DNA of 64,000 nt from Deltaproteobacteria bacterium (GTDB lineage Bacteria > Desulfobacterota > GWC2-55-46), in contig JACRCJ010000286.1 in the NCBI GenBank assembly GCA_016219075.1, positions 27,528-91,527 on the forward strand, given 5' to 3'. Shown one piece after another: positions 58,343-63,135 of the stretch. The first letter of the stretch is position 1. Each line of letters opens with the position of its first letter. The notes beneath the pieces are model-generated. The model had not been told where the DNA came from. It searched no databases and worked only from the letters and a program-made list of their open reading frames with translations. Position numbers and translations under genes: made by a program.

Positions 58343-60829
58343 TCAACGCATCTCGTGCCATTCGATGACGCTTACCGCGCCGCAGTCACCGCTGACGGTG
58401 ATGTTGTCGGTAACGGCCCTGTACTGGTCGTTCGTCCCGCCGTCCGTAAAGAAGACGCCGCTCTCAGGCGGCGGCGTTGAGTTAGCCGCGGGCATGAACG
58501 TACCCTCAAGGAAACTTGAAGAGACCTTTACGCCGCCGCCTCCCCCGGCGCTGGTCGGGGAGCCGAAGGTAAGAGTACGGGTCGAAGAGGAAGAGACGGT
58601 GACAGGGGAATCGAGGTACGCCTTGTATACGGCTCCGCCCCCGGCAGAGGAGTCGTTGAATGAAAAATAGCTCGACGTTGTAAGGCTCATCGGGACCGAG
58701 GCGCTTATGTCCCTTACGGAGACCGTAAACGAATATGAGCCCCCGCAGACTGCCGCAGCCGGAGACAGCCCGCCCCAGTACTGGAGGTTGGCCTTTGTCC
58801 AGCCGGTGAAATTAACCGTGTCCGAGGCTGAGGCGTTTACATGAGCAGCCGTTACAACCGCGGTGGTATCGACGGCGCTGTTAGGGGCCATAAGGCTTAC
58901 GGTAGCCTGCCCGTTCACGCCGGTTAAGGCAGTAGACGAACTCAGGCTCCCGTTCGTGGTCGAAAAGGTAACGGTCTTTCCGGAAACGGGGTTTCCGCCG
59001 GAGGTAAGGGTGGCGGTAACCGTGTAAGCGGAGCTTCCATCGGCGTAGATGGGGCCAGCGGGCGAGTGAAACAACGCGGCCCCGTAAGCCGTCACCGTGA
59101 CGTAGCTCCCTATGGTCCCTTCGGCGCCCCCGCAGCCGGTCCTGGGCACCGGGGTGACCGGGAAGGCGGCGGTCTTATCGGATGATACCGATTCCGTCGT
59201 GCTGAAGGTTATCGAAAACGATTTACTGCCGCCGGACGGTATGTCGTTAGCTGAGCTGTTCGACCTGAACCTTACGGTATTGGCGCACGACGCGCTCCAT
59301 CCCGAGGGCGGGGCGACCGATGAACAGTTCCAGTCGCCGCCGGATGCCGGGGTCGCTATGTCGACCTCTTTGATTGCGCACGCGCCGCCGTTAAATACGG
59401 TCCATGTAAAGGTCTCGTTCACCGAGCCGCTCGCAATTGTTGCGGGCGCGACCGTAGCCGAATACTGCGAGATCGTCCCGGTGTTCGACGTGACCGGGTC
59501 TGTCGTGACAGGGCCTCCGGCCAGCGCGCTCCCGCTCAGGCAGTACGCCTGCCCTATCGAGCCGGTAACGCGGTAGGTCCAGTAAAAGACCCCCGAGCCT
59601 TTGGGCGCGAGCGAGGAGACGCTGGCCGGCGAAGGGCCTGAGACAAAAGTTTCCGTCGCGCCACCCCCGCACGGCGTCAGGGCCGATGGAGCGATATCTA
59701 TGAGCGCGGTAGTGCCGTTGTTGACTGCCAGCATCTCAACCGTGATAACCTGCCCGGAGATGACGCTTACAGGCGTGATGGCGAGCGAGGCGGTGAAGTC
59801 CCCTATCAAGACGATATTAGAGTTGACGGTCGTCGATTTTGCCGTGGAAGCGCCGTTTGCCGCCCTTGCCGTGAAATAGACCTGCCCGGAGCTGTTCGCG
59901 GCGTATTCCCAGAAGACCGTCCCTGTCTCGCCCGGCAGGAGCGAGAACGCCGTAAGGCCGTAGACCACTGAGCCGGATACGTGGGTAGCGGCCGTTGTCC
60001 CGTTGCACCCCCTCGTGATACCCGAAAATGATGTCGCTGTCTTGGCCGAATAGCAGATATCCTCTCCTCCAACCCTTATCGTCCCGGTTGAGGGGAATTC
60101 GGCAGTGGAGCCGACGTTTATTATAGTTGCCGAGTCCGCGTGGTCGCCGTTCAAAGCAGTCGAGCCGAAAAAAGGCCCGGCGGTATTGGTCACTATGGCT
60201 GAGGACGCCGTGGGCGGAGAGGGCGCGGAGTTTATAGTAGTCTGCGTCGCCGTAGAGCGGTTCGTTGCCTGCATCGAAAGCGTTATGGTTTCTCCAGCGC
60301 CGACGGAGGACGGCGCGGCTGACAGCAAGGCCTCGATGGACCTCCGCGTCCATGCGGGCATGGCCCCTGCCCTGCTGAAATTACTCTGCGTAAGCACCCT
60401 TACGCTTGTGAAGGTATCTCCCGCAACGTCAGCGGACGCGGCCGAAGGGAGCGCCGTGATGTTGAAGGTAAGGCTTTCACCTGGAGAGACTTCCGCTGAA
60501 GTTGAGCCTGTGCCGCATATGCCGCTGGACTGCGTAAGGGCGAAGATGATCGTTCCGGCAGTGAAGCTGGTCACGCACCAGCCCGGCGGAGGCACTGTGG
60601 AGGCGCTAAAGCTGTATTTCGCGGTATCCACGTTGAACTCTATCTCCCTAATGTCCCTCGTGGAGCCGGAGTTGTTGGTCACGGTGACCGGCAGGACCGC
60701 TTCGGGGTCCTGCATCGTGACCTCCGCGCCCGCCGGCATCGACAGGCTGAATGTCTGCGCGGCCTCCGAAAGGGGCGGGCGGAAAAAAACTATAAACGTA
60801 AAAATAAGCGCGGACAAAAGTTTTCTCAT
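58343..60829 (-). CDS. large secreted Thr/Ser/Gly-rich protein with bacterial Ig-like (Big)/DUF11-like repeats; putative pilus-associated adhesin (PilY1/MshQ position)
   Basis: Signal peptide MRKLLSALIFTFIVFF. ~20% Thr+Ser. Repeated G-E-[ST]-[IL]-T-[FL] beta-sandwich-like blocks. Big-like block SGKTVTFSTTNGSLSSSTALTGVNGQATVSL. Sits at the 3' end of a minor pilin operon. Confidence 0.5.
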   Translation of the reverse strand: MRKLLSALIFTFIVFFRPPLSEAAQTFSLSMPAGAEVTMQDPEAVLPVTVTNNSGSTRDIREIEFNVDTAKYSFSASTVPPPGWCVTSFTAGTIIFALTQSSGICGTGSTSAEVSPGESLTFNITALPSAASADVAGDTFTSVRVLTQSNFSRAGAMPAWTRRSIEALLSAAPSSVGAGETITLSMQATNRSTATQTTINSAPSPPTASSAIVTNTAGPFFGSTALNGDHADSATIINVGSTAEFPSTGTIRVGGEDICYSAKTATSFSGITRGCNGTTAATHVSGSVVYGLTAFSLLPGETGTVFWEYAANSSGQVYFTARAANGASTAKSTTVNSNIVLIGDFTASLAITPVSVISGQVITVEMLAVNNGTTALIDIAPSALTPCGGGATETFVSGPSPASVSSLAPKGSGVFYWTYRVTGSIGQAYCLSGSALAGGPVTTDPVTSNTGTISQYSATVAPATIASGSVNETFTWTVFNGGACAIKEVDIATPASGGDWNCSSVAPPSGWSASCANTVRFRSNSSANDIPSGGSKSFSITFSTTESVSSDKTAAFPVTPVPRTGCGGAEGTIGSYVTVTAYGAALFHSPAGPIYADGSSAYTVTATLTSGGNPVSGKTVTFSTTNGSLSSSTALTGVNGQATVSLMAPNSAVDTTAVVTAAHVNASASDTVNFTGWTKANLQYWGGLSPAAAVCGGSYSFTVSVRDISASVPMSLTTSSYFSFNDSSAGGGAVYKAYLDSPVTVSSSSTRTLTFGSPTSAGGGGGVKVSSSFLEGTFMPAANSTPPPESGVFFTDGGTNDQYRAVTDNITVSGDCGAVSVIEWHEMR

Positions 60830-60843
60830 AAGCCTGCAGCCGG

Positions 60844-62132: not shown

Positions 62133-62545
62133 TGGTTGGTTATCACGGTGGCGATATCCACCGAGCTCCCCGGCCATGAGACGGTGACCCTGACCCTCTT
62201 TGCCCGTATGTCGGAATCCGCGCAGCCCGGCATCGTGCCGCTCGACGCGTTAAGGTCTGCTTCCTGCACGCAGAAGACATCGAGCTGCCCCGTGAACCTC
62301 CCGAACGGCGCCGGAAGCGCGGCGGCGGGCTCGGATACTATGGTGGAAAAGCCGTTCGCCTTCTTGTCGGCCATGACCCTTTCGAGTTTTTCCTGAGCGA
62401 GCGACAGGCCCTGGGTAAGGGCTGAAGGGCCGCCGCTCGAACTTACACCGGTGAAATAAAGGAGTACGCCCGTGGAGATTATCCCGAGTATGACTATGAC
62501 CATCACGGCCTCTATGAGCGTGAAACCCGCTTCTTTACAGGTCAT
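62129..62545 (-). CDS. prepilin-type minor pilin (PilV/GspH-like)
   Basis: MTCKEAG|FTLIEAVMVIVILGIISTGV leader plus hydrophobic alpha1 helix. 138 aa. ATGA overlap with the upstream gene. Confidence 0.7.
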   Translation of the reverse strand: MTCKEAGFTLIEAVMVIVILGIISTGVLLYFTGVSSSGGPSALTQGLSLAQEKLERVMADKKANGFSTIVSEPAAALPAPFGRFTGQLDVFCVQEADLNASSGTMPGCADSDIRAKRVRVTVSWPGSSVDIATVITNH

Positions 62546-63135
62546 TGTATCGTTACCATGCCTGTATTCGGGGTTACCGAAATAGTCTCCGACAGCCCAC
62601 CCTTTGATAACACTATGGATTTGGACGCCGTGAGCCTTATGCCATCGCTGTCATAAGGTATGCCGAGGTTGTCGAACTCGATCACGCCCGGGACCGACCC
62701 GCCGAAGTCGGCCGCGACGGTAAACCCCGCGTAATCGCCGCTGTCGGTTTGGACGCAGAAGTAATCCGCGCCGGTGGAGGGGTCCCTCGCGCTCTCCACT
62801 GTCCCGCCCCCGTTCGGGTTCTCGCCCCATGTCCCGTCCCTGTCTGCGTCGTTCGTTATGGCATAGTGGCCGGCGCCCGCGCAGTTAGCGTCGGCGATAT
62901 TAAAACTTATCCTGTAAAGGAAGGCCGGCTCCGTCGAGGCCGGGGAATCAAGGCCGCTCCTTATGAGGGCGAGCGACTGGGCGTACCTTACGTCGTCCCT
63001 TACCTTTCTCGACAGGGCCGGGGCCGTCACCGAGGCGGTGCCCCTGAAGATCATCGGCGAGGCCGCTGCGGCCACTATTGCCATGATGATGAGCACAAAG
63101 ACGAGCTCGATAACGGTAAAGCCTTTTTTACCCAT
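62542..63135 (-). CDS. prepilin-type minor pilin (FimU/GspH-like)
   Basis: MGKKG|FTVIELVFVLIIMAIVAAAA leader. The track ORF 62542..63852 has a nonsense N-terminal extension. ATG at 63135 (ATGGGTAAAAAAGGC). Confidence 0.65.
   Translation of the reverse strand: MGKKGFTVIELVFVLIIMAIVAAAASPMIFRGTASVTAPALSRKVRDDVRYAQSLALIRSGLDSPASTEPAFLYRISFNIADANCAGAGHYAITNDADRDGTWGENPNGGGTVESARDPSTGADYFCVQTDSGDYAGFTVAADFGGSVPGVIEFDNLGIPYDSDGIRLTASKSIVLSKGGLSETISVTPNTGMVTIQ

Follow-up and report, generated by a model that had tools for sequence, protein, structure and literature searches.

A rare family of Ig-like proteins in the PilY1/MshQ position of a type IV filament locus from an uncultured Desulfobacterota-type bacterium

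Here we describe the putative tip gene set of a type IV filament machine found in a 64,000-nucleotide (nt) stretch of DNA (the window), whose host is an uncultured Desulfobacterota-type groundwater bacterium that encodes this machine in a single locus. The set occupies the minus strand from 63135 down to 58343 and consists of five tightly packed genes, four for pilin-like proteins and a last one for a large protein that is not a pilin. We consider it probable that these genes form a tip or priming module in which a new, rare family of immunoglobulin (Ig)-like proteins fills the slot taken by PilY1 or MshQ in known systems. A preliminary description of this DNA had given coordinates and gene descriptions that proved correct when rechecked in the sequence. 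The genes of the set and the regions of the large protein are as follows, with lengths in amino acids (aa) and a slash marking the predicted cleavage site:

62542-63135, minus strand: minor pilin 1, 197 aa, GspH/FimU position; ATG at 63135; leader MGKKG/FTVIE
62129-62545, minus strand: minor pilin 2, 138 aa, GspI/PilV position; ATG at 62545; leader MTCKEAG/FTLIE
61590-62132, minus strand: minor pilin 3, 180 aa, GspJ/PilW position; TTG start; leader (M)KTALTGEKG/FTLIE
60844-61593, minus strand: gene 4, pilin-like, 249 aa, GspK/PilX position; ATG at 61593 in an ATGA overlap; MRLGSRG/ASIVAVIIML..
58343-60847, minus strand: large gene, 834 aa, PilY1/MshQ slot; ATG at 60847 in an ATGA overlap with gene 4; stop codon at 58343-58345
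60758-60847, minus strand: Sec-type signal peptide of the large protein, residues 1-30, ..PPLSEAA/QTF
59948-60163, minus strand: mini-domain inserted among the Ig domains, residues 229-300; phrog_4406, E 5.7e-11
58805-59050, minus strand: Big_1 (intimin/invasin-type) Ig-like domain, residues 600-681; Pfam 41 bits, cut-off 34.9
58346-58381, minus strand: conserved extreme C-terminal tail GAVSVIEWHEMR, residues 823-834; candidate trans beta-strand

From pilin 1 through to the large gene, neighbouring genes overlap by 4 nt at each of the four junctions (the ATG of pilin 2, for example, overlaps the stop codon of pilin 1 as ATGA), and the four pilin-like genes are translationally coupled. Pilins 1-3 each have a short basic leader ending in Gly, Phe at +1, Glu at +5 and a hydrophobic alpha1N helix, and all three lie above the cut-offs of both Pfam N_methyl (23.5, 27.5 and 29.8 bits, respectively; cut-off 21.2) and TIGR02532 (24.1 bits for pilin 1), in agreement with the three G/FT[LV]IE prepilin leaders that had been claimed for them. 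The gene order had been likened to fimU-pilV-pilW-pilX-pilY1; this is borne out by an H-I-J-K-like order and sizes (197/138/180/249 aa) ahead of the large non-pilin protein. The assignment of pilins 1-3 to the H, I and J classes rests on gene order and these sizes, the NCBIfam matches, and the PDB-profile matches of pilin 3, being limited to the N-terminal helix. Orthologues of pilin 1 were found in 14 loci, and pilin 2 likewise has conserved orthologues in related loci. A promoter and terminator scan returned nothing above chance.

The fourth gene, to which a PilX-like leader had been attributed, begins MRLGSRG/ASIVAVIIMLAIV. It has the pilin-like helix and lacks Glu at +5, as in a cap minor pilin, and its place as fourth in the set is kept in 14 loci. 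Its N-terminus is PilX_N-like, and source records call its homologues PilX or PilX_N proteins.

The large protein is exported but is not a pilin: a Sec-type signal peptide (helix at residues 3-21 in the model) leads into a mature N-terminus, ADTFS.., that is conserved in orthologues, and neither a prepilin motif nor a lipobox could be read from the sequence. At NCBI the identical protein is recorded with 790 aa (P0001); that version begins at Met45 and so omits the signal peptide (residues 1-44 correspond to 60715-60847 of the window). The longer open reading frame (ORF) is the real one, because orthologues keep residues 31-44 (ADTFSxTVPAGTEVTM); an alternative start at the second ATG, 60829, would give 828 aa.

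An AlphaFold2 model built from a 63-sequence alignment is confident and all-beta (pLDDT, the predicted local distance difference test, 87.8; pTM, the predicted template modelling score, 0.79), and according to this model the protein is a chain of about six Ig-like beta-sandwich domains. A Foldseek search of the PDB matched nothing but long runs of Ig-like domains, in HYDIN-like proteins, alpha-2-macroglobulins and PrgB; the structural neighbours are invasin/intimin, YcnI, A2M-MG, cohesin and Gram-positive pilin Ig domains, with no propeller, vWA or LamG domain among them. Big_1 is the sole Pfam match, Big_1 and intimin are the only matching models in Pfam and NCBIfam, and vWA, PilY1 and PQQ gave no Pfam match even at E ≤ 5. 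The preliminary description, which had predicted a secreted protein of repeated beta-sandwich blocks with no vWA domain or PQQ propeller, thus agrees with model, Foldseek and Pfam alike; its figure of about 20% Thr/Ser was too low, Ser and Thr together making up 27.9% of the residues. Two cysteines, C701 and C822, are nearly invariant and could, as judged from their conservation, form a disulfide. Sequence and family searches revealed no known anchor or export signal beyond Sec, i.e. no beta-barrel, LPXTG, PEP-CTERM, type IX secretion system C-terminal domain, lipobox or RTX.

The protein ends in a strictly conserved C-terminal tail. All 63 aligned members, including relatives at 34-44% identity, end in the motif [VIL]x[VIL][ILM][EDR]WxE[MLFIV]x and stop 0-2 residues past it (..RILDWREVVQ, ..RIMRWREVVQ and ..VILSWEILR in relatives; ..IEWHEMR in the window). 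W830 and E832 are invariant, and the tail directly follows the nearly invariant C822. Residues 826-831 are the sole internal segment with pLDDT below 50 in the monomer model, where the tail appears to be free. This is of interest since in PilC/PilY1 the final ~10-12 residues are added as a beta-strand to the sheet of PilK/PilX and thereby license pilus assembly (Ellison et al., PNAS 2026, PMC13533445). The same study predicted such an insertion for MshQ, and proposed that unrecognised tip subunits could be found by their position after a K-type minor pilin (PMC13533445). By our analysis the tail fits this description of a licensing strand, and the ATGA coupling of the large gene to the K-position gene would suit a stoichiometric partner.

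The large protein belongs, by sequence comparison, to a small and rare family. We found about 70 homologues at 50-100% identity, all from metagenomes and from uncultured 'Deltaproteobacteria' or 'Thermodesulfobacteriota' metagenome-assembled genomes, and a few relatives at 34-44%. Wherever enough sequence lies upstream (14 of 14 loci), the large gene comes after these four pilin-like genes in unchanged order; because this order recurs in every such related locus, the five-gene arrangement is more than chance. The relatives at 34-44% identity likewise lie directly downstream of pilin genes in type IV filament clusters (P0069 at L004; P0068, 1358 aa, at L072; P0067 at L073), and every full-length family member examined comes after minor pilins. 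The last 150 residues are found in only 20 clusters (50% identity) among 1.84 billion proteins, always at the extreme C-terminus. Conservation is fairly even over the whole length of the family, without a hypervariable binding tip. A further 47 metagenome loci, found via the platform protein, were scanned for alternative tip proteins; they were mostly other system types without nearby minor-pilin sets.

Two of the distant loci have features of their own. At L004, two MshEN/T2SSE ATPases and several response-regulator and histidine-kinase genes surround the set (4057-6208 and 11926-17711), and an extra 149-aa secreted protein is encoded between the PilX_N gene and the large gene. At L072 (12289-16455), the P0068 locus continues with a prepilin peptidase, a PilT-like ATPase, another pilin and a Wzy_C/TPR protein, the last of which is possibly a TfpO/PglL-type O-oligosaccharyltransferase. 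No secretin was present in the 16 kb examined of L072, which may mean a differently built envelope or system. One other protein, P0070 (1033 aa; L024, 5045-8146), has its first Ig-like domains in common with the family (30% identity) and ends in a PQQ-like beta-propeller. It was considered as a link to PilY1 and rejected: its neighbours are PqqD-like and S24-peptidase-like genes, not pilins, and it is without the C-terminal module.

The most invariant part of the family is a mini-domain of ~70 residues that interrupts the series of Ig domains and has the motif G.I.(V/I)G.E.I.Y......F.G..RG..GT.A..H and invariant G255, E262, R279, G280 and T284. It resembles a module of phage virion, baseplate(-wedge) and tail-sheath proteins and shares 50% identity across 72 aa with P0071, which itself has a phage tail-sheath match. 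It is absent from the relatives P0068 and P0070, and a search against PDB sequences gave one insignificant match only, to a phage tail protein (E 3.2).

Comparison with known tip proteins shows where the likeness lies. In the PilY1/PilC systems (Pseudomonas fimU-pilVWXY1; Neisseria pilHIJK plus pilC), as here, a large Sec-exported non-pilin protein is encoded right after a Glu5-less PilX/PilK-position gene and carries a conserved extreme C-terminal peptide of ~12 residues, which in PilC/PilY1 is the strand donated to PilK (PMC13533445). PilY1/PilC, however, has a C-terminal beta-propeller and often an N-terminal vWA domain, neither of which the large protein has; its body is all-Ig, much richer in Ser/Thr, and without similarity to PilY1/PilC in sequence or fold. 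MshQ of the Vibrio mannose-sensitive haemagglutinin (MSHA) locus (mshDOPQ) is again a large non-PilY1 protein directly after I/J/K-like minor pilins. MshQ contains LamG, and the large protein matches neither MshQ nor LamG models in Pfam or NCBIfam and cannot be placed in the MshQ family. The earlier suggestion of an MshQ-like protein is therefore upheld for position and not for family, no MshQ, LamG or PilY1 family model matching. With the Big_1 stalk adhesins intimin and invasin the large protein shares a Big_1 domain above the Pfam cut-off and a rod of tandem Ig-like domains, but it is without their N-terminal beta-barrel, LysM anchor or C-terminal lectin domain, its signal peptide leads directly into Ig-like domains, and its context is a pilus operon.

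The locus around the set, read beyond the window from an identical public Logan contig (L001) and from related contigs, is that of a filament machine. The operon runs in the order MshEN/T2SSE ATPase, GspF/PilC platform, small degenerate pilin-like protein, major pilin, YfhO-like GT-C glycosyltransferase, PMT_2 GT-C glycosyltransferase, minor pilins and large protein, and continues with an AAA_22 ATPase, a TPR protein, PilM, PilN, PilO, a PilP-position protein, a secretin and a SPOR protein. The following parts of it flank the set within the window:

63147-64000, minus strand: PMT_2/ArnT-like GT-C gene, 3' part, 284 codons, frame open to the window edge
57327-58295, minus strand: ExeA/MshM-like AAA_22 ATPase (E 8.4e-28); 322 aa by Prodigal
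52719-57330, minus strand: TPR protein, PilM, PilN, PilO, PilP-position protein and PilQ-type secretin of the same operon, identified with Pfam and NCBIfam

The secretin scores 293 bits against the NCBIfam PilQ model (cut-off 284) and 135 bits against MshL (cut-off 250), and PilM scores 135 bits (cut-off 133). The ATPase, which carries an MshE-type c-di-GMP motif, and the platform fall between the GspE/F and PilB/C models. The ORF of the AAA_22 ATPase is already open at 58361, a start that would run 19 nt into the large gene; 58295 is its likely start, given the Prodigal call and the alignment to TIGR03015 (from residue 23). TIGR03015, an XrtA/PEP-CTERM-associated ATPase, is its closest NCBIfam model, at 298 bits and below the cut-off of 324. 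No prepilin peptidase, PilT or PilY1 gene was found in the locus or elsewhere in the 64-kb window. The major pilin has 136 aa, begins MKSSNKG/FTLIE and is Thr-rich. At its N-terminus, G/RSPVE or G/RTVFE, the small protein encoded upstream of it (130-144 aa; L001 789-1181 and L005 2526-2960, outside the window on its upstream side) resembles a degenerate pilin; it also has a weak T2SSG match (E 0.007), and from these features could be an MshF/MshB-like extra pseudopilin.

The mandatory genes of the MSHA system, mshA, E, G, L and M, lie together in one locus that has no peptidase (PMC6668835), and functional counterparts of all five are present here, also in one locus without a peptidase. The Vibrio locus shares with ours an MshM-like AAA_22 ATPase, an MshN-like TPR protein and an ATPase with the MshE-type c-di-GMP motif (PMC6668835; PMC13533445); it differs in that our locus has a PilQ-subfamily secretin, a permuted gene order and two inserted GT-C genes. 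We do not call it a bona fide MSH pilus, the secretin passing the PilQ model and failing MshL, and from these profile matches we call the system a type IVa pilus-related filament system with MSH-like accessory genes.

The preliminary description had placed an ArnT/PMT-like GT-C gene directly upstream of pilin 1. Such a gene is there, with 11 nt between its stop codon and pilin 1, but the ORF is truncated by the end of the window; the full copy on L001 encodes a 549-aa PMT_2 protein (PF13231) and is preceded by a 791-aa YfhO-like GT-C gene and the major pilin. The full-length GT-C genes of L001 and L002/L003 have recorded PF13231 and PF09586 matches, which place them in GT-C families, whereas the window fragment alone gives a weak Glyco_transf_22 match only. 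The YfhO-like and PMT_2 pair lies between the major pilin and minor pilin 1 in 10 of the 10 loci that reach that far, some of which add sugar-modifying genes or a third GT-C-like ORF, and this conservation strengthens the earlier idea of pilin or adhesin glycosylation. GT-C enzymes work at the periplasmic side. Plausible glycosylation targets on this analysis are the large protein, 28% Ser/Thr, and the major pilin, which is Thr-rich. A precedent is TfpW, a GT-C enzyme encoded beside the pilin gene whose product it glycosylates (bioRxiv 10.1101/2020.04.19.049825). TfpW and TfpO of Pseudomonas aeruginosa, next to pilA, are likewise GT-C membrane glycosyltransferases directly downstream of the major pilin gene; here there are two enzymes, of the YfhO and PMT_2 families, and the likeness noted is one of gene position.

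These findings suggest the following mechanism. Three minor pilins processed by prepilin peptidase would take the GspH/FimU, GspI/PilV and GspJ/PilW positions, and the Glu5-less GspK/PilX-position protein would serve as the cap that primes filament assembly. The large protein would be exported by Sec, fold in the periplasm and dock on the K/J-like minor pilins, most likely by means of its free 12-residue C-terminal tail as an added beta-strand, and would then pass through the PilQ-type secretin on the tip of the filament, its extended Ig-like stalk serving there as an adhesin. The two periplasm-facing GT-C enzymes would probably O-glycosylate the Thr-rich major pilin, the tip protein, or both. 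Anchoring by the C-terminal tail is less certain, in our analysis, than the filling of the PilY1/MshQ slot. What the sequences and the model show is the gene structure, the pilin signatures, the all-Ig fold, the kept gene order and the conserved tail, and from these the tip location, strand anchoring, adhesion and glycosylation are inferred.

Several observations weigh against this mechanism or loosen parts of it. The profile of pilin 3 matched PDB sequences at the N-terminal helix alone, with no GspJ/PilW family beyond it. Gene 4 has a highly conserved C-terminal hairpin of its own (residues 227-248, ARREVFxGFSR), which could be a cis strand as in GspK of T2SS (type II secretion system), in which case a trans strand would be unnecessary. 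PMT_2 genes are frequent in the genome, with two more in the window, and this makes the glycosylation link less specific.

The conserved hairpin belongs to a wider likeness to T2SS, which also has the order and relative sizes of the four genes (GspH-I-J-K, the last without Glu5) and an ATPase and platform of the type found here; these two score slightly better against GspE/GspF than against PilB/PilC, an ExeA-like AAA_22 ATPase is present, and the locus has no PilT retraction ATPase. On this basis the machine could be T2SS-like, building a short pseudopilus, with the Ig-like protein as secreted or surface-released cargo and not a stable tip subunit. We think this unlikely: in place of GspC/L/M/D the locus has the alignment proteins PilM/N/O and a PilQ-subfamily secretin, translational coupling to gspK, such as the large gene has to the K gene here, is not usual for T2SS substrates, and the invariant tail together with strict adjacency to the K-like gene, kept across 34-100% identity, better fits a stoichiometric partner. 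That the large protein might instead be a non-adhesive assembly factor in the periplasm or outer membrane (a plug, a secretin-gating component or a scaffold) is suggested by the adhesion-independent priming and plug functions of PilY1-type proteins (PMC13533445; cyanobacterial preprint) and by its even conservation with no hypervariable binding tip. We regard this as still less probable, since about six Ig-like domains with an intimin/invasin-type Big_1 are the typical architecture of a surface stalk adhesin, and the high Ser/Thr content and adjacent glycosyltransferases suggest surface exposure.

It seems very improbable that the large gene encodes an unrelated cell-surface adhesin that merely shares the operon and is exported and anchored independently of the filament. 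Ig-like adhesins are common, the protein matches no pilus-specific family model, and P0070, with the same N-terminal Ig domains, sits in a pilin-free locus; but P0070 is the protein without the C-terminal module, which is otherwise confined to the C-termini of the 20 clusters described above, the large protein has no known anchor or export signal beyond Sec, and the family members examined in full length all follow minor pilins.

Under the favoured reading, that of a tip or priming module, the large protein is a clean tip-protein candidate, unrelated in fold to PilY1 and MshQ, yet in the same genomic slot and with a strictly conserved free tail. It matters chiefly as a test of how general beta-strand licensing may be and of pilus glycosylation linked to GT-C enzymes. 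If the reading is true, the licensing strand would be a portable device found on very different adhesin bodies, the mechanism would reach uncultured Desulfobacterota-type groundwater bacteria, and a new route of pilin or adhesin glycosylation via YfhO/PMT_2-type GT-C enzymes would be possible. A bolder version, which we offer only tentatively and would not expect to hold in full, is that the family is a third, independently evolved class of tip protein beside PilY1/PilC and MshQ, with an all-Ig stalk, a tail ([VIL]x[VIL][ILM][ED]WxE[ML]R) that would license assembly through trans beta-strand addition to a jelly-roll-type K minor pilin, O-glycosylation of the stalk by a dedicated YfhO/PMT_2 pair and, as its most conserved and possibly ligand-binding element, the small module shared with phage baseplate and sheath proteins.

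The set also contains a well-documented non-ATG start of the sort that annotation pipelines can call right or wrong. The TTG of pilin 3 at 62132 overlaps the TGA of pilin 2 as TTGA and gives a 10-aa leader with a 4-nt overlap; the sole in-frame ATG, at 62177, would give a 25-aa leader and, as had been noted, a 49-nt overlap with pilin 2. In a comparison of 13 orthologous loci the equivalent start is ATG in 12 and GTG in one, with leaders of 7-16 aa, and relative to the stop codon of pilin 2 all 13 fall between -4 and +20 nt. A leader of exactly 10 aa, as with the TTG of the window, is found in six of the 13 (compare MKTGALDTRG/F of L011 with [TTG]KTALTGEKG/F here), and the -49 position has no start codon or open frame in at least five orthologous loci. 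Because the orthologous starts all fall at the equivalent place, and because Prodigal gives the same 180-aa product on L001, the TTG start put forward in the preliminary description is well supported by sequence comparison. N-terminal proteomics cannot separate the TTG from the ATG, since prepilin peptidase removes the leader and both starts yield an identical mature pilin 3.

Elsewhere in the window, positions 1-36000 of the plus strand hold a large polysaccharide biosynthesis and export cluster. This includes a flippase-like gene (8998-10506), a Wza-like exporter (26832-30179) and Wzi (30169-31851), three B12-binding radical SAM genes (4454-6181, 6182-7798 and 18574-20028), and the two further PMT_2 genes of the window (13785-15392 and 34028-35497).

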